From a virus: DNA of 64,000 nucleotides. Every line of letters starts with the position of its first letter. Within the stretch, counting starts at the first letter, position 1. Position numbers and translations under genes: made by a program. Of this stretch, positions 1-20,981 are shown one piece after another. The stretch is taken from positions 1 to 64,000 of IMG/VR virus record IMGVR_UViG_3300046787_000675, one strand, 5' to 3'. The notes beneath the pieces were generated by a model. It ran no database searches. It worked only from the letters and a program-made list of their open reading frames with translations, and was not told where the DNA came from.

Positions 1-999
1 CTCCTGTACCAAGCGAAGAGATATAGAAGAGAAAGATGCCATAAGTTGTGGTTTACTTTTTCCGTTAGATATAGATATACTTCCGTCAGAATCAAACAGT
101 CCAGATAACAGCCCTATTTTAAACTCTCTAGGGGAACATAACCAAAAGGATGGTAAGTGTTTTTTATCTGCACCTTTACCCATTAATTTGAACAGTAGTC
201 TACTTGTATCTGTATTGCTATATACATAAGTATAAGAATCACCGTATGAGTCTGCTGTTTTTTTGCGGTGCAGATGTGCGGCTTTACCATCCTTACGTAT
301 TTTATTTAAGTCTTCCTGTATAGACTGTTCAACATTTCCATACGAAGTACTAAAACATAATTGACCTTTTACTTTACCGTTGCAAAAAGAGACCCATCCA
401 TCTCCGATTAAGAATCCAATTAAATGACCAAAGGATTTATTTAAAGGTATCTGATCTAATAAAGATGATCCTTCTCCTGGTATAGTCGTAATGCTTGCCT
501 CGTAATCCAACGCAATATTTTCTAAGTGTCTACCAGACGGGACTAACATACCTACAGAATCTTTTGGAGTTCTTCGGACTAATTCCAATGTTCCAGGAAG
601 ACACCCGTATACAGCTCGTTCATCATCATCTGTTATTATCTGATTTCTATTATGGAGATTAACCAGCCATATTTCTTTATCTCTGTGAATAGACCAGCCG
701 TGTACATCTGCTAATACTATCTTTTTAGTTTTTTCGCAATACGCAGGCACTTTTAAAAATTTCTCTGCTTCATAGAAATCAACTCCATCTTTGGATCCGA
801 GTAAACGATCTTTTCTGTAAGGGAAATCTTCTAGGTTAATACAATAATAGTTGCTACCTTTAACATAAGGTAAGTGTGTTGTAAAGCGTGCTGCCATAAG
901 TCGTGTTCTCCAATATTCTTTATTATATATATCAGATACACTATAATACTCTTCAAGATATTTACAAGGCAGATTTACAATAACATTCCCTATTTGCTT
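1..999 (-). mobile_element. Intein 2 (partial, LAGLIDADG) inserted immediately after the catalytic DFDGD; atypical N-terminus
   Basis: RNAP similarity stops at DFDGD. The downstream in-frame sequence contains LIGFLIGDGW and LLSGLFDSDGSI plus KKHLPSFWL, typical of intein endonucleases. C-terminal junction is outside the window. Confidence 0.8.
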
Positions 1000-3900
1000 G
1001 TCCCCGTCAAAGTCAGCCCCTAAAGGCTTAACAAGTGCCGGAGGAATCTGTAGAGAATGACCTTTTGTAATAACTGGCCACATTGCAATCATACTGTATT
1101 TATGCAGGGTAGGTGCGCGATTAACAATAACAGGTCTTGTTTTTATAACATCTCTTAACCCGCTCTGGGCAGCTTCTGTTTTATTAGCGACTGCTTTGGC
1201 TGCTTCTGTAGCAGGCATTCCAGCCTGGACTAAGCTTCTAACTATAAACGGCTCATACAGATCCCATGCTTTCTCCTCCGGTATTCCTACCTGATTAAGT
1301 TTAAGCGACGGGTTAAGAGATATAACAGCAAGACCGGAAGCATCGATATTAGTACCTATTACGCGTTTTTGGACAAAGCCTAATTTAGGAGATCCTTTAC
1401 CGAGAATATTGGTAAGTATACCTCCCACCTGTTTAGTCTGAAGTTCTGCCTGTACGGGGTCAGTTAATCCTACCAGAGCTCTATAATTCTTCTGTATATT
1501 TTCGCGAGCTTCATTCTTTACATCGTCCGGGAGATTAGCTGCGTCCTTATAATCCTCAATAGCCTCCATGGTAGCTTTATACATGTAGTTAGCATCATTT
1601 ACCATATTCATCCCGTTACTTTGTGTAATCGGTCTGTATTTAGGAGGTAATACAGGTATTCTGTCCATAAGGTAATCGCGAGGTGCTACACCTTGATCCT
1701 GCATAGCTTTTAGATAGCGGAACTTTTTAATAGCCAAAGGACGCGATGTTTTATTACCGTTCTTAATTAGTTCGATAGATTTAGTTATTTCATGTTCAAC
1801 ATCGATTTTATTTATCTTATCGTTAATAGCCCCATTACGAACTTCTTCATCAAATTGTTTTCTAGTCATCCCCAGTATATTTCTAATAGGATCTTCCATT
1901 ACAGGATTTACCATTGGCTCTGGCAAAGCAATATATCCCCAGCGTTTACCGTTGCCGAGAGAATCTGTAGCTACGGGGTCGAATAATCCGCCTTCTATAG
2001 GTTTAAAGTTACTCTGTGCAAATGTCGCGTTTTTAACTATCTGTCTATCGCCGGTTAGCTCCTGCGCACCTTTATTAGTTAAAGCTTGAATATTGTCGTT
2101 GTCCTTACCTTCATGAAAGTTTACTCCGGCAGCAGTAAGCATTGCCTTAAACTTATTATACACTTCAGGTGTATCCGGGACTTTAGGGGAATAGCCTAAT
2201 TTTAATTGCTTCCAGAACTCGTCGTTGCGTTGTCCTTTTATCAATTTCATATCTCTTAATACTTTTGTAGCATTGTGACCTAAGAGACCCTGCTCCTCCA
2301 TTACTCCTAAGTGCTTACTATTTGATACTAAGACGTTACCAGCAGTGTACTTATGTGTGTGATCTACAGTGAAGTCATAAACATTAATATATTCTACATC
2401 AGTTCTATGTTTATATTGTTTAATACTCCTAATAGTAGCTGGGACTTTACCAATCCTGCATATGTTATCTACCGGAACAGGTTTAATAGTTTTCTGTATT
2501 TCTTTTATAGTTTTGCGTAACCATATCTTACTACGAGGAACAGCTGTATAAGGGATATATTGTGCTATAAGCTCTACTAATTTAGAACACAGTTTAGCAG
2601 ATATATATAAAGAGTATTGTTCTGGGCGTTTATATATCTTACTTACGCACTTATCTCCGAATCTTCTTTCAAAGAACGCGATTATAAGATCTAATTCAGT
2701 CTCAGAGAACCCATGTGTAGATAATTCTCCTTGCAAGGCTATCTTTCCTTTCTTCTTAGCATGGTTTCCTATATACCCATCATCTAAAATCCAAGCACAT
2801 AGTCCTATATCGCCTATATAGTTAAGCCATTCTTCTGTAACCGTCTTCTTATCCTCTTTATAACACAGCTGTTTAAGTTCTTTTATAACCGCTTTATCGC
2901 ACATAGTCATTAGAGTACGTTTGTGTGATTTACCTTGAGGGTCTATTCCTTCGGATTTTATTTGAGACCATGTTCCATATAACCCCGCTACTACTTTTTG
3001 TTTAAAACTTATATACTCAGATTGCTTTATAGAATGCATTACCTGATATTGCTGCGATGTAAGATATGCGTCTCCAAGTAAAGACCCAGCTAAAAACTTT
3101 TTCTGATAATCTGTGGCAATTGGACCCCAACTGATAAGTTCGTCCCCCACCTTAAGCTCTCCAGCTGTTACTTTTTTACCGTTGTATAGATATACTTCAT
3201 GGTTGATTGTAGGAGTAAGAACAGATGTATGTTTAAATCTTTTACCCCCACACACTGATGCTGTTCCTTCTACTTCTATGTTAAGAATATCTGACACGCG
3301 TGCTCGATAAGTAAACCAATCCGTTATCGGTCTATAACACCAAGACTCAGTTTCCCCATCATATGTCCATACGTGTTCTGACTGCTGTTTCTCGACTATT
3401 CTACCTATCTCCCTCTCTCCATGAAGGGTTAATATTTTCTGTGTTGATGGGAAACATCCGGTCTTCCCTCCTTTCGCCGGTAAACCTTCTTCTGTGTATT
3501 TACCGGTCGAGCGCGCTTTTCCTTTGCCCTCTGCGGTATGTTGTAGTTTATAGAAGAAGCTTTTGCCTGTAAAAATTCCTGGTATTGTTTTACCTGTCCG
3601 CGGATCATATATATCTTCAACATCCTTTAAACCGTTTTTAGTTAATTCTTTCTCGGCAAACTCTACCATATCCTCGTCCAGAAATCCGGGGAGTGTGTAC
3701 GGTTTACCTGTTTTCTCTGCAATTTTTCCTAACTGCGCTTCTACTAATTGCGAGCTGTTTGTACGGGAGATAACTCCGAGAGGAGAAATTATAACGTCAA
3801 TAGGTCTTCCAGAAGAATCCCGCGGCATTTTATCGTCAGGAATAATATCGGAAATAACACCTTTACCTCCGAATCTATTAGACAGTTTATCGGCAATCAT

Positions 3901-6303
3901 CATAGGTACATTTGCCCGCGCTGCTACAGCAAAACCATTTTTAGTTTCAGTTGCATCGGTAACAACACCGGGAAACTTATGTGTCCATGTCTGGGTTATA
4001 TCAGTGCGCAGTCTTCTACCCAGGGTATTGCTTCCCTGTGTTTCATTAAAGGCGACTACCATAGGATCGCCGTAATTAAGTATACTGCCAGGCTTTACTA
4101 CGCCGTTCTCGTCGAGTTTATTTAATTGATCTTTGTTAAATTTAGATGGGAATACAGCCAGGAACTTTTTAAGTCCAGTCTGTGTATCTTCATTCTTCTC
4201 AAACTCCTCGTTATACATATGCTCTGAGGTTAATTTACTTCTAGCTGCGCTCTCCGAAATAAGTATAGAGTCTTCAAATACTTTTCCGTCGTAATTCATA
4301 TAGGCAACACGTAAATTTGTACCGAGAGCAGTTACACCTTTATCGTCTGTATAATTACTGCTTGCAAGTAGCTGTTGTTTACCTACCTTATCTCCTACTT
4401 TTACTGCAGGAATATTACGTATATAAGTCTTACGGGAAAAAGGAAATTTATTGTAGAGTTCGTGTGTTACGGATTTACCGTCGGCATATTTAACTGTTAC
4501 ACTATCGTCATCTAAAGCTGTAACAACGCCGTCGTTATCTGCTCTAAGAGCGCCCATATGTGTCCCTAGTTCCTCTTCCACGGACGACTCTCCGGATACC
4601 GTCCTTACAAGAGGAGCTTCCCGGGAAACTAGAGGGAGAGCCTGCACGGCAAATTTTGAACCCATTAAAAGGCGCATACCTTTAACTCCGCTTTTTAAAG
4701 GTACTGTATTGGCTCCATTAGAAAAGATATCGTCTCCTGTAGGAACTACAAAATCAAGATCTTTACGCGGTATAAGTTGTACGCCTTTCTCGGTTACAGC
4801 AGGGACGAATTCGTTTTTATCGTTAAGGTATTCTGATGTCGCGACGTTTTTATAGGCTGCTGTTTTGGAATCTACCCATTCTCTTTCCCCCGTACGGGCA
4901 TTAATAAATTGCGTATATAACTTATTATCTTTTCCTTTCCGTACATTCCGGGCAAGGCGCATATCGACACCTATTTTTAAGGATTCCGGACTGCGAATAA
5001 CATCAACAAAGTTCAAGTAAGAAGGCTGTACATCCCGCGCAGAAGAAGGTACACTATCGATATCTTCTAAGGCACCTTCGCCGAGACGCGTAATACGTTG
5101 GTTCTGATCGTAGTAATCTAACGGATTTATCTCTTCAATACCTTGGCTAACTCCCGAATTATTAAATAGATATGTGACATGGTCGTCTAAATGTGCCGGG
5201 GGAATAACTTCTGCGTTAGGTCCTTTGGAGCTAAGTCTCCAAAGTAATTTTTTAGAGACATTATGTTGGTCGCGACGAATTTTCTCTGTTAGGAAATCGG
5301 AGAAATCAAATACGCGTTGAAACGCCAGGGAATCCCTATTGTCATTACCTTCCTGTCCGCGAGATATACGTAACAATTTAGATGTTGCATCTGCCAACAA
5401 TTGGGGTTGGACTCTCTCGTAAGGTTTACCTAAAGTGCTTGTTGTTCCCTCTACATCCAAGTCCCCTTTAGAAAACGTGTCAATAAGATTTTGCCTTATG
5501 CGTTCTGTGTCATCTGCAGCTTCTTTATCCAGGGTAGGATCTTCCTGCTCTTTTATAAATTCTTCTTTAGGAGCTCTTCCTCCGGGATGTACAAAAGATT
5601 TAATAAAGCGGGTAGCATGCGATGTATTGCGCATTGTTTCGTTTACAGTATATATTTCTTTACCCCATCTACTCTTTAAATCCTGTGTATCATAGCCCAT
5701 TGCCTCCATAACAGGGAGAAGAGGTACTTTCTTATTAGCATATTTTAAATAAAATACCGCTGTAGATGGATCCATAAAAATACGGAAATTAGATCCTGTA
5801 CCCGGTTTAACATTTATTTGTGCCTCTACTTGCTGGTCATCTGTACGTTGGCTATAAACGCCGGGATTCAAACGGAATTGTTTATTTACAGTATATTCTG
5901 TGCCGTTTCGAATAAATGTACCTCTATCCGTCAGGAAAGGTACGTTCATAACAGTACGGGGGTTAGACTTAGACAAGATATTACCTTGTAGATCGTGTAC
6001 TTCCCATGAACCTTTAAGTTTTCTAACAAGGGATTTTCCTTTAAGAATAGCTTCTCGCTGTTCGCGAAGGTTATACCGTTCTTTAGGTTCATATTGTACG
6101 TCGGACAGTACAAGTTTATATTTATCGTTCGCAATAGGATAGGCATTAGATACAGCATCTTTAATGTTATTGTAGATAACTCCACGGAAGGAATTATAAT
6201 CGCTGTAGTCTATTAATTCATCGGGATTTACTTTTGGTAGTTCAAACAGACTATCTGCACTACCTGTAGCAGTACCTGTAGGTGCCGGGAGTATATTTGA
6301 CAT
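1..6303 (-). CDS. rpoBC: Fused beta-beta' multisubunit-type DNA-directed RNA polymerase (partial, >=2101 aa, 3' end beyond window), containing two inteins
   Basis: Hand translation from ATG at 6303; frame checked at 5160, 3456, 2340 and 1020. Beta motifs: VPFLTDRGTFIRNGTEY, SQGIEEINPL..RITRLGEG, RSPESLKIG, RLLMGSKFAVQALPL, ALGTNLRVAYMNYDGKVFEDSILISE, DKLSNRFGGKGVIS, KLQHTAEGK, KHLGVMEE. Beta' motifs: KPIEGGLFDP, IPVLPPKYRP, NRAPTLHK, GADFDGD (1020-1000). Confidence 0.95.
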   Translation of the reverse strand, partial: MSNILPAPTGTATGSADSLFELPKVNPDELIDYSDYNSFRGVIYNNIKDAVSNAYPIANDKYKLVLSDVQYEPKERYNLREQREAILKGKSLVRKLKGSWEVHDLQGNILSKSNPRTVMNVPFLTDRGTFIRNGTEYTVNKQFRLNPGVYSQRTDDQQVEAQINVKPGTGSNFRIFMDPSTAVFYLKYANKKVPLLPVMEAMGYDTQDLKSRWGKEIYTVNETMRNTSHATRFIKSFVHPGGRAPKEEFIKEQEDPTLDKEAADDTERIRQNLIDTFSKGDLDVEGTTSTLGKPYERVQPQLLADATSKLLRISRGQEGNDNRDSLAFQRVFDFSDFLTEKIRRDQHNVSKKLLWRLSSKGPNAEVIPPAHLDDHVTYLFNNSGVSQGIEEINPLDYYDQNQRITRLGEGALEDIDSVPSSARDVQPSYLNFVDVIRSPESLKIGVDMRLARNVRKGKDNKLYTQFINARTGEREWVDSKTAAYKNVATSEYLNDKNEFVPAVTEKGVQLIPRKDLDFVVPTGDDIFSNGANTVPLKSGVKGMRLLMGSKFAVQALPLVSREAPLVRTVSGESSVEEELGTHMGALRADNDGVVTALDDDSVTVKYADGKSVTHELYNKFPFSRKTYIRNIPAVKVGDKVGKQQLLASSNYTDDKGVTALGTNLRVAYMNYDGKVFEDSILISESAARSKLTSEHMYNEEFEKNEDTQTGLKKFLAVFPSKFNKDQLNKLDENGVVKPGSILNYGDPMVVAFNETQGSNTLGRRLRTDITQTWTHKFPGVVTDATETKNGFAVAARANVPMMIADKLSNRFGGKGVISDIIPDDKMPRDSSGRPIDVIISPLGVISRTNSSQLVEAQLGKIAEKTGKPYTLPGFLDEDMVEFAEKELTKNGLKDVEDIYDPRTGKTIPGIFTGKSFFYKLQHTAEGKGKARSTGKYTEEGLPAKGGKTGCFPSTQKILTLHGEREIGRIVEKQQSEHVWTYDGETESWCYRPITDWFTYRARVSDILNIEVEGTASVCGGKRFKHTSVLTPTINHEVYLYNGKKVTAGELKVGDELISWGPIATDYQKKFLAGSLLGDAYLTSQQYQVMHSIKQSEYISFKQKVVAGLYGTWSQIKSEGIDPQGKSHKRTLMTMCDKAVIKELKQLCYKEDKKTVTEEWLNYIGDIGLCAWILDDGYIGNHAKKKGKIALQGELSTHGFSETELDLIIAFFERRFGDKCVSKIYKRPEQYSLYISAKLCSKLVELIAQYIPYTAVPRSKIWLRKTIKEIQKTIKPVPVDNICRIGKVPATIRSIKQYKHRTDVEYINVYDFTVDHTHKYTAGNVLVSNSKHLGVMEEQGLLGHNATKVLRDMKLIKGQRNDEFWKQLKLGYSPKVPDTPEVYNKFKAMLTAAGVNFHEGKDNDNIQALTNKGAQELTGDRQIVKNATFAQSNFKPIEGGLFDPVATDSLGNGKRWGYIALPEPMVNPVMEDPIRNILGMTRKQFDEEVRNGAINDKINKIDVEHEITKSIELIKNGNKTSRPLAIKKFRYLKAMQDQGVAPRDYLMDRIPVLPPKYRPITQSNGMNMVNDANYMYKATMEAIEDYKDAANLPDDVKNEARENIQKNYRALVGLTDPVQAELQTKQVGGILTNILGKGSPKLGFVQKRVIGTNIDASGLAVISLNPSLKLNQVGIPEEKAWDLYEPFIVRSLVQAGMPATEAAKAVANKTEAAQSGLRDVIKTRPVIVNRAPTLHKYSMIAMWPVITKGHSLQIPPALVKPLGADFDGDKQIGNVIVNLPCKYLEEYYSVSDIYNKEYWRTRLMAARFTTHLPYVKGSNYYCINLEDFPYRKDRLLGSKDGVDFYEAEKFLKVPAYCEKTKKIVLADVHGWSIHRDKEIWLVNLHNRNQIITDDDERAVYGCLPGTLELVRRTPKDSVGMLVPSGRHLENIALDYEASITTIPGEGSSLLDQIPLNKSFGHLIGFLIGDGWVSFCNGKVKGQLCFSTSYGNVEQSIQEDLNKIRKDGKAAHLHRKKTADSYGDSYTYVYSNTDTSRLLFKLMGKGADKKHLPSFWLCSPREFKIGLLSGLFDSDGSISISNGKSKPQLMASFSSISLRLVQE
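2320..3456 (-). mobile_element. Intein 1 (379 aa, LAGLIDADG homing endonuclease) in the beta C-terminal region
   Basis: Starts CFPSTQKILT after ..KGGKTG. Block B TPTINHEV; LAGLIDADG motifs LAGSLLGDAY and AWILDDGY; ends VYDFTVDHTHKYTAGNVLVSN followed by +1 Ser. Removal restores GGKTG-SKHLGVME (cf. GGQRFGEME). Confidence 0.92.
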
Positions 6304-6306
6304 ATT

Positions 6307-7287
6307 CTACCCTTGTGCAAGTAATTTAGCGTAAGGATCTGTATCGTCGACAAGCGGCGCAGGAATCTTTTTTGCTTCTTCTCTTCTACCTAAAGGTACT
6401 ACAGATTGTTTTTTCTTTTTATCTTTTTCCAGTTCTTCGTCTATGTAACTCAGATCTGTAAATTTAGGTACGCCTTTTACCCGGGTAATATCCTGCATAA
6501 TAGTATTAAGTTCTTTAAGTCTTTGTCTATTCGGGTCTTTATTATCCATATACCCTTTAGCCGATTTATAGCTAAGTCCAGCAATACCTAATGCAGCAAG
6601 AATGTATAAAGATAAGGAGGCACGACCTATGTTAGAAGGATTAATGTAATCACCTAAACTATTCATTTCTGTTCTAGGAACATTTCCCGGTAAATAGCCG
6701 GAAATACTGTGTATAGCTTCTGCCGCTGTTTTATTGAGGCCACGTGTTCGTTTATACTCTTCATATAAAAGTTTATCGATTGTATTTTCTGTATCGGAAA
6801 TGCTATTGTTAAGCTCGTCTTTCTTATTATCATTGATAATACTGTCTGTAAGTTTCCATCCCCCGTATGTACCCGCCAGTAAAGCTGCAAGAGCTACTGC
6901 CGGATGGAAACGACTTGTTGTTTTGTCCGATAAAGTATCCCAGGCTTCTGTTGCCTGTTTCATTATAAGATCGGATGTTTCCTCTGCCCCTAATTCTTTA
7001 AGTTTTTCTTCCTTCTTAACGTCTCGTGTAGAGGCATCTAAACTAAGAATAGGGTTACGGGCATTTATATAGTTCTTCATTTCTTCTGTAGTTTTCGCTT
7101 CTACAGCCTGCTGACGAAGATGCGAAATATATTTTGCAAGAGCACCTAGGGTACCATAGCCAATAGCTAATCCTGCGCCGTGTTTTAATGCTTTAGATGT
7201 AGTTGTATCTCCAGACGATAAAGGAATATTTCCTGCAGCGAAAGGGTTGAAGAATAAATTAAAGTATTTTTGTGTGTTACTTGACAT
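6307..7287 (-). CDS. Putative virion (head-internal/ejection) protein with Gly/Ala-rich hydrophobic helices and internal KQA/KTA motifs
   Basis: 326 aa; GAGLAIGYGTLGALA, AVALAALLAGTYGGW; MKQAT, NKTAA; structural gene context. Confidence 0.55.
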   Translation of the reverse strand: MSSNTQKYFNLFFNPFAAGNIPLSSGDTTTSKALKHGAGLAIGYGTLGALAKYISHLRQQAVEAKTTEEMKNYINARNPILSLDASTRDVKKEEKLKELGAEETSDLIMKQATEAWDTLSDKTTSRFHPAVALAALLAGTYGGWKLTDSIINDNKKDELNNSISDTENTIDKLLYEEYKRTRGLNKTAAEAIHSISGYLPGNVPRTEMNSLGDYINPSNIGRASLSLYILAALGIAGLSYKSAKGYMDNKDPNRQRLKELNTIMQDITRVKGVPKFTDLSYIDEELEKDKKKKQSVVPLGRREEAKKIPAPLVDDTDPYAKLLAQG

Positions 7288-7630
7288 TTTTAGCAGTCTC
7301 CGGATCAGTATAATAAGTTTCGTACCATTCTAAATAAATACTAAAAGGAACTCTGTTCGTAAACAGCTCTTTGATTGAGACATTAATTTGTTTATGTATG
7401 GCTTTAGACATTAGCTCTTCATACTCTTTAGTGTCTTTCTCGTCTTCCATGTTAAATACTTTAGCCCGGGGAGAAGTCAAAACAAGTTTAGGTTGTTTGG
7501 ATTTTGGGTCTGATTTTTTAATGCTCATGTGACTACCTTTATATGGTCGTCCATTCCATTGTCCTTGAACAACGTCTGCAGAGTTAATAGAAAAAGGTTT
7601 ACCGTTCATAGGTATTTCGTAAGTAATCAT
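7277..7630 (-). CDS. Hypothetical protein
   Basis: 117 aa; overlaps neighbouring start/stop codons. Confidence 0.7.
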   Translation of the reverse strand: MITYEIPMNGKPFSINSADVVQGQWNGRPYKGSHMSIKKSDPKSKQPKLVLTSPRAKVFNMEDEKDTKEYEELMSKAIHKQINVSIKELFTNRVPFSIYLEWYETYYTDPETAKNVK

Positions 7631-7908
7631 AATCTTATCTCCCGCTCTTGTTTTACGGGTGCTTTAGTCTGTATTTCGGCTACTTTCTTTCTTCTCTCTA
7701 ATTCTGATTTAAATTCGGATAATTCCAAGTTATACAATTTGTCCTGTATAATTTTTTTATCTGCGACAGATGGGCTGGTTATTTTTGAGGCTACTACCCC
7801 AGCACCAATACCCAGTGTAGCCGGTGCCAGTATAGATAAAGCTAATAATGTATTAGAATCCAGGGCTGCTTCTTTCTGTAAGAATTGTTTAATTGCTTCT
7901 TTATCCAT
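7627..7908 (-). CDS. Small putative virion membrane-helix protein (KEA motif)
   Basis: QFLQKEAAL then hydrophobic LLALSILAPATLGIGAGVVA. Confidence 0.6.
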   Translation of the reverse strand: MDKEAIKQFLQKEAALDSNTLLALSILAPATLGIGAGVVASKITSPSVADKKIIQDKLYNLELSEFKSELERRKKVAEIQTKAPVKQEREIRL

Positions 7909-7910
7909 TT

Positions 7911-8888
7911 TTAAAATCCTTTACTCAAAATTCCAGTATTATATAATGCACCTGCTACAGCACCGATATCGCTTAAGCGCTCTGTCTGTGCTTTAGGTAA
8001 TGAGAATAATTTACCCATAGTAGAGCCAAATGCAATTCCCGCCCCCATACCAATACCTGCTTTTATCGCGGTTCCTGCTAAATCCATTCCACTAACGTGT
8101 CCGGAAGAGCCTTCGCTAGTTGACCCGAGAAGAGACTTTACCCGGGATTTATCCCCTAAAGTTAGAAATTCGTCGCGATCTATTAAATTACTGCTCTGGT
8201 GTACAGGAATAACTGGATGTGTGAAAGAGGATACTGTATTGCTAATTTCGTTGTTACCAAGGAACGCTTCTTTATTATGTCCATGGATATTTAATAGTAA
8301 ACAAAGCTCATTCCGTAGTTTGTCGCTGGGTACTTTATTTTCTGTTGCTTCTTTTTCCATTTCTATAAGTAATTTATTAAGTCCGCTCTTATCGTTAAGT
8401 CTATTGAAAATAACACTCCAGGCTTTCACTGCACCTTCTTTGTTTAATCTACCGGAATCGAACGGATTACCTGTAACATACTGAACTGCTCTAGGAGGAT
8501 TATGTAGTGCATCCATAATTTCCTGGTGCTGTACTTCGGGGTTATTCTTATAGAACTCTTGTTTATTGATAAATTTAGAGAGGTTATCTCCTGTAGATAT
8601 TTTTGAATTATAATTCTTTAATGCAGGATATGCAGCACCTACGCTGGCACCTGCCAGTGTCATTAGATTCTGTAAAGATTTAAAAGAGTCTCCTCTTTTC
8701 ATCTCTTCATACGCGAGTTCTTTTTCTTCACTGGATTTACCTATAAGAGATAATCCCAGTGCAAGGCGAGCAGCGGCCTTGGTACCGTATCTACCTATCA
8801 AGGCACCTGCGGTACCTAAGACAGCAGATTCAAGAACCGGTCTATTTTCTAATTTACCGTATGCTTTAGTTATTCCCGTAAAGCTCAT
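7911..8888 (-). CDS. Putative virion protein with glycine-zipper-like helices
   Basis: 325 aa; GIGMGAGIAFG, GAVAGAL; KEA motifs. Confidence 0.55.
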   Translation of the reverse strand: MSFTGITKAYGKLENRPVLESAVLGTAGALIGRYGTKAAARLALGLSLIGKSSEEKELAYEEMKRGDSFKSLQNLMTLAGASVGAAYPALKNYNSKISTGDNLSKFINKQEFYKNNPEVQHQEIMDALHNPPRAVQYVTGNPFDSGRLNKEGAVKAWSVIFNRLNDKSGLNKLLIEMEKEATENKVPSDKLRNELCLLLNIHGHNKEAFLGNNEISNTVSSFTHPVIPVHQSSNLIDRDEFLTLGDKSRVKSLLGSTSEGSSGHVSGMDLAGTAIKAGIGMGAGIAFGSTMGKLFSLPKAQTERLSDIGAVAGALYNTGILSKGF

Positions 8889-9333
8889 CTTCTTTCCTCG
8901 TTGTACTTAATCTCCATGCAGGTTTATCTGTATAATTGCCTGGATCTACTCTATTTTGTTTTAGAGCTTTCATAAGCTCATTATGTCTTTGTTGATTAGC
9001 TTGTTCATTTAGGAAGTTTGTACCCATGTACATTGCACCTGCTCCGAGAGCATAATTCTTAAATTCTTTTTTTGTATCATCTACCATTTTAGGGATATTG
9101 GAGAATGTATTAAATGCTCCGACTAAATTATTTATTGGGGCTCCTGTATTGTACTTCCGTTTTAAACCGTAATAACCTTGTTTAACATCTTCCTTAACGT
9201 TTTTAGCCGCGTTGTATGCCCGGACAGGTGAGCTTAATGCGTCGCTTGCCAAGTCTGTGTATTTATTCCAAGCATCTCCTGCCCATCCTGCCTGCTTATA
9301 TAAGTAACCGTCTAAAAATGCATCTTTGTTCAT
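8866..9333 (-). CDS. Putative virion protein with N-terminal AFLDGYLYKQA signal
   Basis: Shared N-terminal motif; GAGAMYMG helix. Confidence 0.6.
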   Translation of the reverse strand: MNKDAFLDGYLYKQAGWAGDAWNKYTDLASDALSSPVRAYNAAKNVKEDVKQGYYGLKRKYNTGAPINNLVGAFNTFSNIPKMVDDTKKEFKNYALGAGAMYMGTNFLNEQANQQRHNELMKALKQNRVDPGNYTDKPAWRLSTTRKEDELYGNN

Positions 9334-9389
9334 TGTAAGTAATCCGTTTTATTATTCTATACTATAATAGGTTTTTATTTTTTAGTCTT

Positions 9390-12092
9390 CTATACTTTTA
9401 GTCTATTTCGATGTTTTTTAGCTTGTTCGAAAATAGAAATTATATCCTCGCTACCGTTCTTCTGTAAACCGCCTACAGGAGTTACGGCTGTTTTAACCGG
9501 CGCAGGTACAGTTACAGGAGGTTTAGACTGTGCATCTAATATTTCCTGGAATGATTTATATTTGGTTTTGTGTGTTCCTGCGAGAGGTATTTTTGTATTA
9601 GTATGCGAACGGAAGAATTCCTGGCCCGGAGATTTCTTATTAGTAAGTTTTTCGTACTGGATCATTTGCCCAAGATTCTGCGGAAGTACAGCATAGTTAC
9701 CGTCGGATCCTTCCAACGCATCCATATACATAGGGGCGTATGTACCTACTTTAGATTTAAGAAACGCATCAAGGTTCTGTCTATGTGCATTCCGTTCTTG
9801 CGGTGTTTTAGCGGAATTCATTGCCTCGTATAAACTTTGTACATTCCCGCCTATCATTAACGGCTTGTTAATTATTTCAGGATTAGTCTCCAGCATATTC
9901 TGCATATGTTGTTTTGTAGCTGTTGTATAATAATTAGCAAAGCTATCGGAATCCGGACTAGGATATTTTTTCTGTTCTTGTACTAGTAAATTATATTGTT
10001 GCGGATCCAGTTTTTTAAGTTGCTGCATACGCATAGGATTAAATATCTGATTATAAAGCGCGTGTCTATCTTTTTTATACAAATTAAACAAACCTTGCGT
10101 TGCCTGTTTATTTGTATCTATAGCATCGGATTCGGCCTGCTCAATATGTTCTGGCGGTCTACTGCTTACCTGCCTTCCCCAAGGAGAGTCATAAAGTCCT
10201 TGACCTGCTTCGTCTACATATTTTTGAGATATATCGTCGAATTGTTCTTTGCTGATATTTCCTTCGAGGTAATCTGCAACATTATTAATTCCGCTTTTAA
10301 AGTCATCTTTAATATCGACTCCTGTTGTGACAATATTCTCCAGTCCTCTACCTGTAAAGGAATCTAAGGCCATGGTTCCTAATCCTGAGTCCAGCATTCT
10401 ATCCCGGGCAGCGTCCCTGTATTTCTCGTTTGTTGCAGCTAATAACCCGCGAGTTCCAGTTTCTGCTACTTGTAATACAGGTAATGCTTTTGTTGCCATA
10501 GAAGTGCCCTTTACCAACATCGACAAAGGAGACAATACCTTAGATACTACACCTGGTTTTTTAAAAGGCTCTAAAAACACATTGGATGCAGCAGCTTTGA
10601 TCGCGGACGGATTAGTTATCGCAGAGACTGCTTTTGCATAATCTGCAGGTCTACTTACTACATGTGCTAGACTGGTAATAGGCGATTTAACTGTGTTCGT
10701 TACGCCCTTTAATAAGTCAACACCTTTTATGGCGTTTATTGTAGGGGCAATATTATTAAATGTCTGTATAGGTTTCGCGATAGCTTTCGCAGTATTTATA
10801 ACAGGAGATACTATTTTAGACGCTGCCATTGCTTGACCAGGCTGTGTTGATTCATCTACTGGTAATAGAAACGAAGATACCATTCCTGCTCCTGTACCTA
10901 GGTCGACGCTTTGTTTCGGTTTAACTCCAGATTTATTGGCAAGATAAGTAAATATATCGGAAAGTTTTTTTGTTACAGCATCCGAATAGTAGGCGGAATC
11001 GCTCGCTTTTATTTTATCTCCATGTACGTAATTCATTGCTTTAGAGGCATTCTCCTGCATTCCCTGCGGTATATTATTTGCTAATGCAAAAGGCAAGCTC
11101 ACAAGATTTTCCGTCATAGTAGGTATACGTCCGGACGCATTAGGATCTATCAGAGGTGTTTGACTTATAACTGTTACAGGTTGACCGGTAACTGGGTTTA
11201 TTTGTTTTGCTAATACAGGTTTCGATAAATCGGCAACTTCATCCTGTGTCAGGATATTGGCCGGTTGTGTTCCTGCTCCCGGTGTATAATATCTGTTATC
11301 GGAGGCGAGTGTGTATAGCATTTCTCTGTAATTAGGGTTAGGGGGAAGTTTTTTAAAATAGTCTTGTGCTGCAACGCTCTGGAAGCGGGGATCTTTTTTA
11401 AGTTCTTCTACTTTCTGTTTGTTCAGTCCTATCTGTGCATTGTTATAATTTGCAACTTCCGGACTGTTATCTACTATCTCTTCTCCCTTATTAAATTTAA
11501 ATGTTTCCGGAAAGGCATGATATTCCGGGGAGTTTGCTAACTCTTTATTTAAATTTTCCGCTGTCAGATTTCCTGATGTTTTTCCTTCTGCCAGAGTTAC
11601 AGCAAAATCCTCTACTGCCTTTTCGGAATAACGCGGGTCGAGTAAAACATTTTTTATATCCTTGGGAACATTATCTAAGTTAGCAGCAGTTATAATTTTG
11701 TTCTTATTATCTAGGTTAGTTTTTTCTTGGGTAGCTCTGCTTAAAGCTTTCTCTTGCTCCGGAGTTAATTTACCCTCCTCTTTTTTCCCTTTCACAGCCG
11801 CTTGTACATTTTGTTCTGCTGTACCTTCTTTTTCCCATTCGCTATATTTCTTAAAAGCACTTTCAATATTACCGTCAAAGAAATTACTCGCGAGCCAACC
11901 GATAAGATAACCTAAAGCAGTACCGACTAACGATTGCAATCCGCTACCACCAGATGCGAGGGTTAGTCCTCCACCTAGTGTCGCGCCGATACCTCCCATA
12001 GCCATTGACCTGTTTCCCTGGTTATGTTGACCAAGTAAATGTTTATCTACGAAAGGTTCTTCTGCCTCTTTAAATATATTGTCGGTAGGCAT
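9390..12092 (-). CDS. Large (900 aa) putative ejection/head-internal protein
   Basis: NIFKEA start; glycine zipper GGIGATLGGGL..LVGTALGYLIGWLASNFFDG, paralogous to the N-terminal region of 12102-12860. Confidence 0.6.
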   Translation of the reverse strand: MPTDNIFKEAEEPFVDKHLLGQHNQGNRSMAMGGIGATLGGGLTLASGGSGLQSLVGTALGYLIGWLASNFFDGNIESAFKKYSEWEKEGTAEQNVQAAVKGKKEEGKLTPEQEKALSRATQEKTNLDNKNKIITAANLDNVPKDIKNVLLDPRYSEKAVEDFAVTLAEGKTSGNLTAENLNKELANSPEYHAFPETFKFNKGEEIVDNSPEVANYNNAQIGLNKQKVEELKKDPRFQSVAAQDYFKKLPPNPNYREMLYTLASDNRYYTPGAGTQPANILTQDEVADLSKPVLAKQINPVTGQPVTVISQTPLIDPNASGRIPTMTENLVSLPFALANNIPQGMQENASKAMNYVHGDKIKASDSAYYSDAVTKKLSDIFTYLANKSGVKPKQSVDLGTGAGMVSSFLLPVDESTQPGQAMAASKIVSPVINTAKAIAKPIQTFNNIAPTINAIKGVDLLKGVTNTVKSPITSLAHVVSRPADYAKAVSAITNPSAIKAAASNVFLEPFKKPGVVSKVLSPLSMLVKGTSMATKALPVLQVAETGTRGLLAATNEKYRDAARDRMLDSGLGTMALDSFTGRGLENIVTTGVDIKDDFKSGINNVADYLEGNISKEQFDDISQKYVDEAGQGLYDSPWGRQVSSRPPEHIEQAESDAIDTNKQATQGLFNLYKKDRHALYNQIFNPMRMQQLKKLDPQQYNLLVQEQKKYPSPDSDSFANYYTTATKQHMQNMLETNPEIINKPLMIGGNVQSLYEAMNSAKTPQERNAHRQNLDAFLKSKVGTYAPMYMDALEGSDGNYAVLPQNLGQMIQYEKLTNKKSPGQEFFRSHTNTKIPLAGTHKTKYKSFQEILDAQSKPPVTVPAPVKTAVTPVGGLQKNGSEDIISIFEQAKKHRNRLKV

Positions 12093-12101
12093 AAGTAATA
12101 A

Positions 12102-12860
12102 CTATGCATATGCTTTAGGCATAGAAACGTTATAAGGGTTCGTTGGCTGTTTGATTAATGGAGGGGTGGTATTTACAGCCGGAATTATTGCAGATGTATT
12201 ACTGACTGCAGGAGTTTGACCTTGTGTTTGACCTTGTGTTTGACCTTGTGTTTGACCTTGTGTTTGACCTTGTGTTTGACCTTGTGTTTGACCTTGAGGC
12301 TGGTTGGTAATTACTTTATCAGATTCATGTTTTACCTCTTGCTCATTAACTTTTGCTTTAGCTGCTGCTATTTTTGCTGCCTCTGCTTGTTGTTGTGCCT
12401 CCAGTGTAGCTCTACCTCTATCCTCTTGTATTTTTTGGATAGCTTTAGTTGTGTCTCCGCCGAAGTAATTAGTGGCAAGCCATCCTACTAAGGCACCGAA
12501 ACCACTACCTAATAGCGCGCTTGTAGCATTTCCGCCCATCATATACCCTAAACCTGCGCCGGCAGTAGCGCCTAATCCGGCACCGGCTATTTGTTGGTTT
12601 CTAGCTGCGTTGGGTCCTTGTGTGAAATTGTTGGCAAAGGAATAAGCTTTATCTCCTGCCAGGATTTTCTCTGCAGCGCCCGACCCATTAGCTTTATTAT
12701 ATGCTGCAATCATTTCCTGTAAAGGAACAGCTTCGTTTGCCTGCTTATGCATATATCCTTTTAGGAAAGCGTCTCTGTTAATAGATTTTTTATCCGTTTC
12801 GGATTTGTTTGATTTAAGCATGTAACCTTGCATGAAGGCTTCTTTAATGACAGTGTTCAT
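12102..12860 (-). CDS. Putative virion glycine-zipper protein with two copies of the N-terminal signal and a QGQT repeat
   Basis: AFMQGYMLK and AFLKGYMHKQA; GAGLGATAGAGLGYMMGG; LLGSGFGALVGWLATNYFGG. Confidence 0.65.
   Translation of the reverse strand: MNTVIKEAFMQGYMLKSNKSETDKKSINRDAFLKGYMHKQANEAVPLQEMIAAYNKANGSGAAEKILAGDKAYSFANNFTQGPNAARNQQIAGAGLGATAGAGLGYMMGGNATSALLGSGFGALVGWLATNYFGGDTTKAIQKIQEDRGRATLEAQQQAEAAKIAAAKAKVNEQEVKHESDKVITNQPQGQTQGQTQGQTQGQTQGQTQGQTQGQTPAVSNTSAIIPAVNTTPPLIKQPTNPYNVSMPKAYA
12213..12297 (-). repeat. 12-bp tandem repeat x7 encoding (QGQT)7
   Basis: GTTTGACCTTGT unit read directly. Confidence 0.95.
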
Positions 12861-12935
12861 ATTTTCTATTTCCTCTTATTTAACATTTCTTTTACTATAC
12901 AAATATCTAGCTAAATTACGAACGCGTATTCGTTT

Positions 12936-14771
12936 TTATTGTACAGGCATTTGTCCTTGACGCATAGCAAGTTTACCTTGCATCGAAGCATTTTGCTCGT
13001 AATCGGCAATAATGGATTTGACCTGCGCATGTAATGTTACATTACTGTGTTTAAGGTTAATTAATGCTTCTCTTCTTTGCGGCGGAGGCATCGCAATAAT
13101 TTCCTGTGCACGTTTATCCGCTTCCATCATTAAGCTTTCAAGAGAAACATCTCCTCCTTCTGCTGATCCTGTAGGCATCGGCGGCGGAGACATAGGCGCT
13201 CCTCCCGGTGCCGGCGCAGCTGCTGCCTGTTCCTCTTGCGATAAGATCATTGCACTCGCAGGCGGTTGTTGCAGGAATTGTTTATTAGCAGATTTTGTAT
13301 CTTGTTCCTTAGCACGTTTCTCGAGGAACTCGTTCATATCATCTTCTTCTTCTGCTATTTTTTCTCTTTCTGCTTTAACATCGATACCTATACCGCGATA
13401 AGCTGTTTCTCTTGATATCTCATTTGAAGCGGCTAAAGATAGTTTAATTTCGCGTATAGCAGGATCAGCATAAAGAGACGGAGGTACAAGTTCTACTTCT
13501 ACGCTTTCCCAGTTAAGTATCTCGCCGTGCCGTTTAGCTACCCAGGTCAAAAACTCGTTAAAGGATGTCGTTAGGTGTTTCCAGGACTGCTCAAACATTT
13601 TAAACGATAAAATAGGTCCTGCAGCAGATTGTACTGTACCTTTATAAAACTCCGGAGGTACTGCCATGGAATAAAGTAGGCGCTGTTCATGGAATTCTTG
13701 GATATCTACAGGAACAATGTTTTTAGCCTCTCCCCCCAATACTTGGTATTCTAGAGGAACAGGTAACCAGTTCCAATCTGTAGGGTTCTGTCTATGCCGT
13801 TCGATTAATTCCATTATATGTTGTCCGAACTCCGCCATATCCATGACAAGCATGGCATCGACGCGACTTCCTGCAGCGGATTGCGGCGGGGCTAATACCC
13901 GGAAAGGGATAAGGTAATCTGCAAGTATACCTTCAGTATATTTATCTAGTAACGCGACAAGCATAGCTGTCTCGAACTCTGCCATAAACTTAGGTAAACC
14001 CCAGCCTTTCAATACCGGTGTCAGGGACGTTACAGGTATATCCTTCAAATGCAGTACTTGTCCTGGTGCAAACTTAAACATCTTATTTTCCAGAACAGCT
14101 TCTACTATTTCCCAGGGAGTCTGCTCAAGGAACAACAAATGTCCTTGTATAATCCCGTCGCGTAGATGATCGTATCTGCCTACATCCAGAAAGTATTCTG
14201 CTTCCCGGGACATAGGATGCTCAATGAGCTCCATGTACTGAGGCGGCCAGTAAGTTATAGACGGTTTAATAGAAGAACGCGGGAGAGGTTTATCTTCACG
14301 TATATAATTAACGGTTAAATGGCATTTAGGACATTTACCGGTAAATTTTTTATTCATCCATTTAAAGTAAGGTTCCATTTTACGGATAGGAGCACGGAAA
14401 TAACATTTAGGGCAAATTAACTGACGCGAGAACGGAACATGTATAGAGGTAAAAACATTTCCGTAGGCGATAAGATTATCCCCTACTGTCTCGAGTTCGC
14501 TATGTAGCTTATATGTCTTATACAGTGCTTTCTTATATTTATCCCGGGTACTGGAATTTAAATCGTCTCCGGTTATCTGTGCCTCTGTTATAAAGTAGCG
14601 AACTGCTTTCTTTATAGCCTGCGAGTAGATACCATGGTGCATCCATAGTTCTTCTGCCCAATCCAGTGCCTGCTTTACTGTTTTAGGGTATAGCCTGCGC
14701 GACAAGCTTTCGAAAGGAGAACTAACACCTTTATCCCAGCTGGAAAGGGTAGAAGAATTTGAAGATGACAT
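12936..14771 (-). CDS. Probable portal protein with a Zn-ribbon insertion
   Basis: 611 aa. Portal-like features: N-terminal 'IYSQAIKK', 'NLIAYGNVF', 'VLHLK..GWGLP', 'LLYSMAVPPEF', 'ISRETAYRGIGID..E', Pro/Gly/Gln-rich tail. CPKC..CPKC insert. Lies near the terminase. Confidence 0.7.
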   Translation of the reverse strand: MSSSNSSTLSSWDKGVSSPFESLSRRLYPKTVKQALDWAEELWMHHGIYSQAIKKAVRYFITEAQITGDDLNSSTRDKYKKALYKTYKLHSELETVGDNLIAYGNVFTSIHVPFSRQLICPKCYFRAPIRKMEPYFKWMNKKFTGKCPKCHLTVNYIREDKPLPRSSIKPSITYWPPQYMELIEHPMSREAEYFLDVGRYDHLRDGIIQGHLLFLEQTPWEIVEAVLENKMFKFAPGQVLHLKDIPVTSLTPVLKGWGLPKFMAEFETAMLVALLDKYTEGILADYLIPFRVLAPPQSAAGSRVDAMLVMDMAEFGQHIMELIERHRQNPTDWNWLPVPLEYQVLGGEAKNIVPVDIQEFHEQRLLYSMAVPPEFYKGTVQSAAGPILSFKMFEQSWKHLTTSFNEFLTWVAKRHGEILNWESVEVELVPPSLYADPAIREIKLSLAASNEISRETAYRGIGIDVKAEREKIAEEEDDMNEFLEKRAKEQDTKSANKQFLQQPPASAMILSQEEQAAAAPAPGGAPMSPPPMPTGSAEGGDVSLESLMMEADKRAQEIIAMPPPQRREALINLKHSNVTLHAQVKSIIADYEQNASMQGKLAMRQGQMPVQ

Positions 14772-14774
14772 CGG

Positions 14775-15605
14775 TTATTCCTTATGTTTAAAATATACTT
14801 GCATAGATAAATTATCTGTCTCTAAATCTATATCCATGCCCAGGTAATACACCTTAGTTTTTTTACCTTGATATTCCAATTCTATTGGAGCACTACCAGG
14901 GGCATTGGATGCAGGTTCGAACATAGCATCTTTTTTACTATATATAACAATAACAGATGTTTCACTATCTGCAATATGTACACATCTTCCTTTGAATTTC
15001 CCAAACGGTGTTTTTATAACAATACTGTGTCTTGTTTTGTTATATATACTCAGAGTCGATACAGGACGAGCAGCCTGTACTACAGGGGCACGTGTTTCCG
15101 GTATAGGTTTACCTTTAATAATGTTTTCGAGAAGTTCTTCATTATCTTTAATAACTTGACCTAGATCCTCTTCGACTACCTCCTCCTCTTCTTCCGTAGA
15201 TTCTGCAGGGTCAGCTACCTGCTGAATAACGCTCTCTTTTTTACGGACTGCTGCAACAGGTGCTGCTTTCTCTACAGTTTCGTCCTCATCGTTATACTCT
15301 TCTTCCTCTGTCGGGAGGGAACTTGAATCTACTTTATTGTCTATCCCTGCTACAGATTTACGATTAGGTACCATATGTTTCAGTCTCCCTCTATCGCGTG
15401 TTCCTTTATAAGTCTTACCTATAATTATTTTACCGTAAGGATTATCGCTACCGTCTATTCCTCCGAACATAGTTTGTCGCGGTATTATTGTTGTACCGCA
15501 GTCTACGGAACCTTCTACTTCATCAGTAACTGTATACGGTTCCGTATCCAGAATTACTTTGATACCTGTAGAATGGACTTTTTTCTTTGTTTTCTTTGTT
15601 ATCAT
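14775..15605 (-). CDS. Hypothetical protein (acidic linker, C-terminal beta domain), directly upstream of portal
   Basis: 276 aa ORF. Confidence 0.7.
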   Translation of the reverse strand: MITKKTKKKVHSTGIKVILDTEPYTVTDEVEGSVDCGTTIIPRQTMFGGIDGSDNPYGKIIIGKTYKGTRDRGRLKHMVPNRKSVAGIDNKVDSSSLPTEEEEYNDEDETVEKAAPVAAVRKKESVIQQVADPAESTEEEEEVVEEDLGQVIKDNEELLENIIKGKPIPETRAPVVQAARPVSTLSIYNKTRHSIVIKTPFGKFKGRCVHIADSETSVIVIYSKKDAMFEPASNAPGSAPIELEYQGKKTKVYYLGMDIDLETDNLSMQVYFKHKE

Positions 15606-15628
15606 CTTTTTACTCTCGGCTGTTTTGT

Positions 15629-16855
15629 TTATAGTAACGACGGTTTAAGACTCACCTCGGTATTAGTCTCGAAATATATTCCTTTCCACACACCTCCTAG
15701 ATATTGTAATCTACACGACGGTTTGTTTTTTGATGCACCTAAAAACAAGTAAACCACTTTATCTTGGTGCTCTACCCACCATACTAATTCTGTTGCGGTA
15801 GGGTTTTCGGTTATAGCTCCGCCTGGCGCAAGGAGAATAGGTCTGTGTTTTCTTATTCCTTTAATAAATAGATATCTTTTACCTGCGATAGATTTTAAAA
15901 CATCGCGCATTTCAGATATATGTGGATGTACGGCAGTGGCTCTTGCAGGTTTTTTATTATAGACAGCTGCTCCTGTCCAAAGCTCGCGAAGTTTATCCAA
16001 AAACGAAAGACACTCGGTATGGTAAAGGAAACCAGGTATATGCAGGTTATCTTCAAATAACTGCCATTTAGCTAGGTTCCTGTGTTGGAATATACGTACT
16101 CCTTGCATATTGTGCTGACACATTGTTTTAGGAAGTCTATCGATTCCTCTCGAAGGCATTGCATATTCTTTTTTTAGCATTCTCCATGCCATGTGAAATG
16201 TATCTTTATCGCCATGTATGTGCTTATAATAGAAATCAGAATACTCGTTTAAATGCATTGTAAGATTTAATTCTTTCCAGCATGTTTGTTTATCTACAAT
16301 AATCTGTCCAGTCTCAAACTCCGGTTCGTCTCTATAAGCTACTTCACATATTTCCCAAATCTTTCGCGTAGGTTGTAAACGACCGAAATCCGGCCAGAAG
16401 ATAGATCCTTTGGCAAGGTAGTCCGGATCGTAGAGAAGATATTCCGGATTAGCTACTGGAACATTATCTGCATCTAGGAATATAATTTCGCGAAATTTAC
16501 TATGTATAATACTGTAGGGTTTGAGTTCCCATCCACCTAATACCCTTGCCGGATTTTTTGCTCTTACCTTATAGGCATCAACTACAGTAACACCTAAAGG
16601 CGAGATTATATCTTTCATTTGTTGAGACATCTCTTTATCGCCTAGATACCATAACTCTATCTCTAAATAACAACCTAATTTTCTAAGCATGTTAATACAT
16701 ACCCAGGCACATGTAAAATACTTAAATCCCCCGCCGCATATTACAATGCCTTTCCCGAAGAACTTGTCGTCTCCCGGATATTCCGGTATATCTTTTATAT
16801 ACTGCTTATACAGTTTTTTATGTTGCTCTATAACTTCAGGGCTGTTTACATCCAT
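15629..16855 (-). CDS. GT71 / Mnn2-like alpha-mannosyltransferase family glycosyltransferase
   Basis: GIVICGG, IELWY, LKPYSIIHSKF.EIIFLDADN, SIFWPDF, EFETGQIIVDK, HGDKDTFHMAW. Confidence 0.85.
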   Translation of the reverse strand: MDVNSPEVIEQHKKLYKQYIKDIPEYPGDDKFFGKGIVICGGGFKYFTCAWVCINMLRKLGCYLEIELWYLGDKEMSQQMKDIISPLGVTVVDAYKVRAKNPARVLGGWELKPYSIIHSKFREIIFLDADNVPVANPEYLLYDPDYLAKGSIFWPDFGRLQPTRKIWEICEVAYRDEPEFETGQIIVDKQTCWKELNLTMHLNEYSDFYYKHIHGDKDTFHMAWRMLKKEYAMPSRGIDRLPKTMCQHNMQGVRIFQHRNLAKWQLFEDNLHIPGFLYHTECLSFLDKLRELWTGAAVYNKKPARATAVHPHISEMRDVLKSIAGKRYLFIKGIRKHRPILLAPGGAITENPTATELVWWVEHQDKVVYLFLGASKNKPSCRLQYLGGVWKGIYFETNTEVSLKPSLL

Positions 16856-16856
16856 A

Positions 16857-17234
16857 TTACTTCTCTGTTCTTTTTTTAAATAGTGATTTTACTTTATTAA
16901 CAATTTTATTAAATGTATCTCTATGTTTAGATTTATGCATACATCTAGCCTTTAACAATGCGGCTTCGCAGCGTTCCTGAAAAGAGGACATGTCTTTTTT
17001 TACCTGCTCTACACTACATACAAGATCTGCTTCTGTATTCGAATAGAATTCTGCTTCTGTTTTTTTAACCCATCGCTCCGGTATACCTGTGTATAATTTA
17101 CCGTTAGACATCCTTAACGTATAGTATATGAATGTGGTTCCTAAACATTCATCTGTGTTTATATCTTCTACTACCGCCGGTTTTTGTGCGAAATAAACCT
17201 TTTCGCCTTGTTTATATTTACTATTGTGTTTCAT
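16857..17234 (-). CDS. Hypothetical protein (likely start at MKHNSK), SH3-like N-terminus
   Basis: AGAGGA RBS before ATG at 17234; the longer ORF overlaps the upstream gene. Confidence 0.55.
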   Translation of the reverse strand: MKHNSKYKQGEKVYFAQKPAVVEDINTDECLGTTFIYYTLRMSNGKLYTGIPERWVKKTEAEFYSNTEADLVCSVEQVKKDMSSFQERCEAALLKARCMHKSKHRDTFNKIVNKVKSLFKKRTEK

Positions 17235-17248
17235 AATATGTCCTCTTC

Positions 17249-18472: not shown

Positions 18473-18477
18473 ATAAC

Positions 18478-19119: not shown

Positions 19120-19121
19120 TT

Positions 19122-20810: not shown

Positions 20811-20981
20811 AAATTTCTCCTCGGTTTAATTAATATAGCTATTGAAATGTCCTTTTATGCTATATATGGTATAGATATACACTATTTATTTATTTGTGCA
20901 ATTCATAAATAGCTAAAAAAAAGAACCCCCGAGATGTAGAAAGGAACGAAACATCTCGAGGGTCCCAGCCGAGGGGAGTGT

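Follow-up and report, generated by a model that had tools for sequence, protein, structure and literature searches.

Background

How can an intein leave the catalytic loop of an RNA polymerase (RNAP) when its first residue is not a nucleophile? The question is raised by a viral gene for a fused RNAP beta/beta' protein, in which an in-frame insert of 522 amino acids (aa) separates the catalytic motif DFDGD from the sequence TMSYSVPVS. A polymerase with an unspliced domain of this size in its Mg-binding loop should be inactive. As there is no Cys, Ser or Thr at position 1, a linear (thio)ester cannot be formed, and a non-standard route would be needed. To our knowledge, splicing without an N-terminal nucleophile is achieved in only two ways, each thought to be of single origin, i.e. 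by the KlbA orthologues (class 2) and by the helicase inteins with a WCT triplet (class 3). A preliminary description of the locus had offered three outcomes: splicing of the protein by a non-standard route, splicing at the RNA level, or inactivation of the enzyme. In a literature search that lay mostly outside subscription journals, we found no description of an intein at DFDGD or of the set of motifs reported below.

Results and discussion

The contig and its RNAP gene

The window, i.e. the whole stretch of DNA that was analysed, comprises the first 64 kb of a viral contig from IMG/VR that is 160,705 bp long. The last 166 bases of the contig repeat its first 166 (Table 1), and the one mismatch in this overlap is an Ala/Thr difference inside the intein. 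Judged by the overlap, the contig is apparently circular; the IMG/VR record is labelled linear and 84% complete, yet appears to close on itself. The RNAP gene is therefore continuous across the contig ends: its open reading frame (ORF) runs through window 6303..1 on the minus strand and on into the other end of the contig (L003 12540..11701), and it encodes a product of 2,380 aa. In this protein Pfam finds domains of RNAP beta and, after them, domains 1 and 2 of beta', an order that identifies it as a fusion of beta with the N-terminal part of beta'. A separate gene located 3.4 kb downstream of the fused one encodes the remainder of beta'. No second, uninterrupted beta' gene was found in the genome, and the beta' catalytic domain found here is the sole one; likewise, a complete 176-kb relative, which carries DFDGN/C (the slash marks a splice junction throughout), has no other beta' catalytic domain.

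The whole genome contains at least four inteins. One canonical class 1 intein lies in the beta part of the same gene (Table 1), and two further canonical inteins lie at the contig end (L003 5265-8246 and L003 1-1806, both on the minus strand). The intein junctions in the gene for the beta' C-part are GY/CLAKGT...VVSN/SDT, and those in a head-module gene are DV/CFTKGT...VHN/CSV. Upstream of the RNAP gene lie seven large ORFs (window 6307-22000, minus strand) for which PHROG gave no match at E ≤ 1e-5; the gene for the large terminase is at window 22685-24493 (minus strand).

Table 1. Features of the insert and of its host gene (window coordinates unless stated otherwise)
Feature	Position	Strand	Remarks
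Fused RNAP beta + beta' N-part, remainder of host gene	1015..6303	-	ORF, Pfam
Canonical class 1 LAGLIDADG intein, 379 aa, C...VSN/S	3456..2320	-	LAGLIDADG_2; in beta part, after ..AKGGKTG
Codons of RNAP catalytic loop DFDGD, the last Asp being N-extein residue -1	1014..1000	-	Pfam RNA_pol_Rpb1_2 ends here
Intein residues 1-333 of 522	1..999	-	LAGLIDADG_3, E 2.9e-7; first codon (K) 999..997
Intein residues 1-6, K-Q-I-G-N-V	982..999	-	non-nucleophile at 1, family-typical Gln2, conserved Val6
W-S-I-H motif between blocks A and B	685..696	-	conserved in type A inserts
Block B, T-D-D-D-E-R-A-V-Y-G (IITDDDERAVYG)	633..604	-	B7 Thr, B10 Asp replacing His, B12 Arg
First LAGLIDADG motif, LIGFLIGDGW (..GHLIGFLIGDGW)	429..394	-	G195 and W202 invariant; acidic residue present
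Second LAGLIDADG motif, LLSGLFDSDGS (..FKIGLLSGLFDSDG)	123..82	-	G300 and G306 invariant
Other 189 intein residues, Thr+1 and 89 further C-extein residues	contig 159700-160539 = L003 11701-12540		
Terminal repeat stretch	1..166		copy at contig 160540-160705, one mismatch

Junctions and anatomy of the insert

At the N-terminal junction the ORF reads ...KPLGADFDGD followed by KQIGNVIVNLPCKY; at the C-terminal junction the insert ends in ...GYDLTVPGYETFMSVDGTILSN (ILSN/T) and the host sequence resumes with TMSYSVPVSEDAVQEA. Intein-free homologues (34 alleles), the flanks of which are up to 75% identical (e.g. in P0075), read DFDGD/TMSYSVPVS. Since K differs from T and D from N, the boundaries of the insert are unique, namely D/K and N/T, and they place it precisely between the third catalytic Asp and the Thr next to it. 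Furthermore, hundreds of homologues carry a like insert at the identical site, which puts the insertion far beyond chance. The preliminary description had placed an in-frame insert with a non-nucleophilic K-Q start directly after DFDGD, and the intein-free alignments fix the junction at just that place, not at a downstream Cys; the C-terminal junction, expected there in the form N/[CST], was found as N/T. Its two LAGLIDADG motifs could be located (Table 1), and its reading of block B as IITDDDERAVY rather than TxxH was confirmed, T-D-D-D having Asp in place of the B10 His.

The inserts at the DFDGD site are of three kinds, types A, B and C, and the window's copy is of type A. The evidence for an intein architecture comes from sequence profiles and from a structural model. 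In the continuation at the contig end, Pfam detects LAGLIDADG_3 (PF14528) with an E-value of 1.1e-12, and the C-terminal part of Intein_splicing with an E-value of 1.5e-5, the latter below the curated cut-off. A profile of 17 type A members aligns in blocks F and G to the Ssp DnaB mini-intein (1mi8) and in its endonuclease part to PI-PkoII, PI-PfuI and PI-SceI. The fold was predicted on the closest contiguous homologue (L013:79-1650:-), which is 46.6% identical to the window's insert over the full length, and the AlphaFold model has a pLDDT of 83.8 and a pTM of 0.86. The best PDB match of this model in Foldseek is the TliVMA intein (7qss, E 3.7e-21), followed by the endonuclease-bearing inteins PI-PfuI, PI-PkoII, PhoVMA and PI-SceI, and there are structural matches to I-DmoI and I-SceI too. 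Thus, according to the model of the homologue, the Hint fold on which the preliminary description had made its reading depend is present, in the likeness of TliVMA, PI-PfuI, PI-PkoII and PI-SceI. Both LAGLIDADG motifs keep their acidic residues, D303 and D305 of the second being conserved in at least 92%, and a LAGLIDADG homing endonuclease is predicted. By its sequence and by the predicted fold of its homologue, the insert is a genuine, mobile LAGLIDADG intein.

A large family of inserts at one site

A first homology search returned 790 proteins, and an insert at the RNAP site was present in most of the top 120. A profile search of the full library yielded 596 clusters (50% identity) at E ≤ 1e-30, the best 150 of which all lie below 1e-117. 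The type A inserts, of which there are more than 200 distinct members, have the form DxDGD/x-Q-[IL]-x-x-V ... [TS]-D-[DNE]-D-x-R-A-V-Y-G ... G-Y-D-L-T-V-P-G-x-E-T-F ... L-S-N/T, and they apparently make up a large, undescribed intein family.

Our census, with counts uncorrected for phylogeny, comprises 98 distinct complete type A inserts. As the pattern by which they were gathered prescribed Asp at F4, Asp at B10 and Arg at B12, the conservation of these three residues was taken from unconstrained alignments instead. Position 1 is occupied by Q in 39 inserts, A in 11, D in 11, E in 10, L in nine, C in five, K in four and S in three, with a few others; a Cys, Ser or Thr is thus found in eight of the 98 and a non-nucleophile in 90. 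Gln2 is present in 72. Glu at F13, Thr at F14, Ser at G6 and Asn at G7 are invariant (98/98), and Leu at G5 occurs in all inserts but one (97/98). The +1 residue is Thr in 97 cases and Ser in one, whereas in 7 of 27 intein-free alleles this position is taken by A, V, L or K (Fisher p 1e-5, with relatedness ignored), as would be expected if the intein needs Thr+1. In an alignment of 64 type A inserts, D124, D126, R128, A129 and G132 of block B as well as the F4 Asp (Asp503) are 100% conserved, while the W-S-x-H motif has W in 86%, S in 95% and H in 100%; across type A, the range of block B is [TS]-D-[DNE]-D-[PE]-R. The window's copy agrees with the family at each conserved position, and is thus not decayed.

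Three type A-like inserts (P0167, P0176 and P0243) have a penultimate His (..LHN/T), and at F13/F14 they show Q-N or E-N where E-T is usual; they might represent intermediate stages of the rebuilt active site.

A single-protein search of IMG/VR found no close relatives, but DNA patterns did find some. When IMG/VR and the JGI metagenomes were scanned with the block B pattern for type A inserts at other host sites, only DxDGD and DxNGD sites, split forms and three chance matches were found. Among isolated phages, the closest, Vibrio phage D181 and Salmonella phage Arash, have exteins only ~30% identical and no intein.

Relatives at the same site and Asn in the catalytic loop

The other two kinds of insert at this site bear an N-terminal nucleophile. 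Type C has Ser1, a canonical block B (S-x-D-H) and a C-terminal Asp; type B has Cys1, S-D-N-E-S in block B, a C-terminal Asp, and Asn at -1. In the alignment, position 1 of type A falls in the column of Ser1 and Cys1 of types C and B, respectively, and its block B columns are equivalent to S-x-D-H of the Ser1-type relatives. In a FastTree phylogeny of 91 inserts, type A together with the Ser1-type P0108 forms a clade with a support of 1.0, and type A alone has 0.22. P0108, the nearest relative of type A, retains a normal nucleophile and has S-Q-D-H in block B. These alignments and the tree suggest that type A descends from Ser1-type inteins of the same site by loss of the N-terminal nucleophile. 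The motif x-S-x-H is common to the Ser1-type relatives also, and is therefore not specific to the loss; on this ground Ser103/His105 of W-S-x-H, considered as a new catalytic pair, was down-weighted.

Table 2. Catalytic loop sequences at the site, counted as unique junction contexts (uncorrected for phylogeny)
Junction	Total	DxDGD	DxNGD	DxDGN
Type A	216	194	22	0
Other Cys1 inteins	19	2	1	16
Other Ser/Thr1 inteins	15	10	5	0
Intein-free alleles	34	34	0	0

Asn in place of a catalytic-loop Asp is confined to intein-bearing alleles (Table 2), and the Cys1 inteins with Asn at -1 belong to at least two block A lineages. Canonical splicing of type B would leave DFDGN in the mature catalytic loop. The loop Asn may be tolerated by the enzyme, deamidated, or tied to the splicing chemistry; Asn-Gly is a classic hot spot of deamidation.

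Type B inserts with DFDGN/C (codons AAT/AAC) and the end ..YD/T were seen in P0073, P0074, P0076, P0077, P0094, P0103, P0106, P0113, P0120, P0265 and P0276, as well as in L054:7703-7946 and from L055:4419 onward. A host clade with DFNGD, i.e. with the middle catalytic Asp changed to Asn, carries type A or Ser1-type inteins (L082:5913-10106 and L099:3-2681, both on the minus strand); P0201, P0210, P0215, P0226, P0232 and P0246-P0251, among others, are further members.

Natural split forms

In L052 (minus strand, ~9675-9842 on the plus strand) and L050, which come from two independent metagenomes, the RNAP ORF stops 21 residues past DFDGD (L-Q-I-N-S-V...), and a new Met-initiated ORF in another frame encodes the remainder of the intein and the C-extein. 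The same split occurs after 24 residues in L040 and L078. Moreover, at least nine of the best 150 representative proteins begin at the split place within the intein, seven of them with Met. The split point falls within a variable helical insertion that follows the first strand. These forms favour joining at the protein level and disfavour explanations at the RNA level. The known atypically split metagenomic inteins of the TerL type have very short N-fragments that start with Cys; the type A N-fragments are similarly short (21-24 aa), but have no Cys or Ser at position 1 and begin with L, F or E.

Split type A proteins were noted in P0145, P0182, P0189, P0193, P0213, P0240 and P0242. Three type B (Cys1) proteins (P0086, P0096 and P0110) end 37-49 residues past DFDGN/C, and are probably split inteins too.

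A candidate route of splicing

Judged by these sequences, protein splicing by a non-standard route is by far the best supported of the three outcomes considered. Splicing itself we infer from what has been established on the sequence and on the homologue's model, namely the anatomy of the insert, its exact junctions, the homologue's fold, the conservation in the family, the occurrence of split forms and the lack of a second gene copy. That Asn522 and Thr+1 are invariant suggests that the reaction ends in the normal way, with a branched ester, cyclisation of Asn and an acyl shift. As to how it begins, we propose by analogy with class 2 that Thr+1 would directly attack the Asp(-1)-Lys1 amide, and we give this reading a probability of about one half. 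The attack would yield the block G branched ester, and cyclisation of Asn522 with a subsequent O-to-N shift would restore DFDGD-TMSY. Activation of the scissile bond would fall to a rebuilt, histidine-free site made up of T-D-D-D-x-R in block B, Asp F4, Glu F13 and Ser G6. The direct attack is favoured by the parallels to class 2 in the missing nucleophile, Ser G6 and Asp F4 (PMC4031507). On the other hand, the documented cases of direct attack on an amide all involve Cys+1, the Thr hydroxyl being weaker, and class 2 needs His at B10, where type A has Asp; moreover, the case for splicing by type A is built on sequence and on the predicted structure of a homologue.

The main alternative to the direct attack is assistance by the extein: the carboxylate of Asp(-1) would attack its own backbone carbonyl, the cyclic anhydride thus formed would free the N-terminus of the intein, and Thr+1 would then attack the anhydride. 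We regard this route, which would represent a new mechanistic class, as possible but doubtful, since we know of no precedent in inteins for the formation of an anhydride from an unactivated amide. Asp is the -1 residue in 216 of 216 type A junctions, while Asn is common there in the Cys1 inteins of the same site; however, RNAP function fixes the -1 Asp anyway, so that its invariance is non-discriminating. Also in favour of the anhydride, though not decisively, every type A copy found sits at one site, and the same-site relatives that end in Asp must cleave their C-junction by Asp cyclisation, which suggests a lineage capable of such chemistry. The block B Asp and Arg would provide a general acid and an anchor that holds the -1 side chain, and the Arg, invariant in type A, occupies B12, the position that activates the N-junction in class 3 (PMC2807308). 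That type A is a fourth mechanistic class, in which a histidine-free carboxylate/arginine site uses the host's catalytic Asp(-1) either through the anhydride or through a metal shared between DFDGD and T-D-D-D, seems to us unlikely on the whole; if it were true, the Asn in the loop (DFDGN/C, DFNGD/x) would mean that active-site residues of the RNAP are chemically coupled to splicing, or restored after it. It is improbable that, in a manner resembling class 3, an internal Ser or Thr (Thr F14 in E-T-F, Ser G6, or Ser103 of W-S-x-H) attacks the N-junction and passes the N-extein to Thr+1. The invariance of Thr F14 and Ser G6 in the 98 inserts and the 95% conservation of Ser103 would fit such a nucleophile, as would the Thr or Ser at +1, which is also found in class 3 (PMC2807308); yet type A has no WCT triplet (Arg at B12, Asp at F4 and Leu at G5), so that the class 3 bypass mentioned in the preliminary description falls away, and Thr F14 and S-x-H are shared with the Ser1-type relatives and are hence not innovations tied to the loss of the nucleophile.

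The remaining explanations dispense with canonical ligation, with an insert starting at DFDGD, or with protein splicing altogether. Both junctions might be cut without ligation and the RNAP function in one more split form, interrupted right after DFDGD; although beta' is already encoded by two genes and natural split inteins exist, the invariant Thr/Ser+1 would be unexplained if no transesterification were needed, and a free chain end at this point of the loop would probably do harm, which makes this reading decidedly improbable. It is very unlikely that we are dealing with a decayed, non-splicing intein and a dead polymerase, or with one that needs a helper protein: not only the nucleophile but also three of the usual assisting His (B10, F13, G6) are missing, but the junction residues are invariant and the ORFs intact across hundreds of diverged family members, both endonuclease motifs are intact, and the catalytic beta' domain is the sole one both in this genome and in the complete 176-kb relative. 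With that single domain and with the family-invariant residues intact, inactivation of the enzyme, the last of the three outcomes offered earlier, is unlikely as well. A class 1 intein with some extra extein residues, truly starting at Cys12 (NLPC/KY) or Cys53 (YYC/INLEDF), was rejected as contradicted by the alignments and is extremely unlikely; the window's copy does have two Cys within its first 53 residues, but neither is conserved, nothing lies between DFDGD and T in the intein-free alleles, and the split N-fragments, which end after 21-24 residues, contain no Cys. Finally, LAGLIDADG genes often lie within group I introns, and a group I or II intron with an in-frame ORF might be considered. 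However, Rfam gave no match at E ≤ 1 in the 15.7 kb spanning both contig ends, the reading frame is unbroken through both junctions in all homologues, the Hint blocks F and G are present, and protein-coding split forms exist; the probability of an intron is next to negligible, and splicing at the RNA level, one of the outcomes offered in the preliminary description, is unsupported in view of the missing Rfam match and the split forms.

Significance

If type A inserts splice, they would represent a third, independent and very abundant loss of the N-terminal nucleophile, and as canonical Ser1 relatives still reside at the same site, the evolutionary path is directly readable. They would offer a splicing site free of both cysteine and histidine, and N-fragments of 21-24 residues, short enough for synthetic peptides, would be attractive for protein ligation. 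Their location in the metal-binding loop of the RNAP raises the question whether phage transcription is gated by splicing, and also why Asn replaces the catalytic Asp only where an intein is present.

Comparison with known intein classes

The class definitions were taken from PMC2807308 and PMC4031507. Class 1 was rejected on the basis of Lys1 (no Cys, Ser or Thr) and of Asp instead of His at B10, B7 Thr being present, and class 3 was rejected on all three WCT positions. In overall architecture, type A resembles the class 1 inteins TliVMA (7qss), PI-PfuI (1dq3), PI-PkoII (2cw7) and PI-SceI, which likewise combine Hint with LAGLIDADG, and its blocks F and G are closely similar to those of the Ssp DnaB mini-intein 1mi8 (D-L-T-V-P-G-x-x-x-F). 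Unlike the class 1 homing-endonuclease inteins and Ssp DnaB, however, type A lacks Cys/Ser1 as well as His at B10, F13 and G6. The class 3 inteins of the type of mycobacteriophage Bethlehem DnaB are alike in being phage-borne, in lacking an N-terminal nucleophile and in having Thr/Ser+1 (PMC2807308), but they differ in the WCT triplet and in their helicase or P-loop sites, neither of which is found in type A.

By its sequence, the closest class is class 2, the members of which have no nucleophile and no WCT triplet (PMC2807308), all contain Ser G6, need Asp F4, and start with a direct attack by the +1 residue (PMC4031507). Type A shares with KlbA of Methanocaldococcus jannaschii and its orthologues the lack of an N-terminal nucleophile and of WCT, Ser G6, Asp F4, Thr B7, the C-terminal Asn and, presumably, the bypass of the linear ester through +1 attack. 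In contrast, KlbA has Ala1, Cys+1 and a required His B10, whereas type A has a variable position 1 (Q > A, D, E, L; Ala in 11/98), Thr+1, Asp B10 and Glu F13. Class 2 is confined to KlbA orthologues, while the host of type A is the catalytic loop of a phage RNAP; and unlike KlbA, type A has an intact LAGLIDADG domain and would have arisen independently, from Ser1-type inteins of the same site. [quoted passage not shown]
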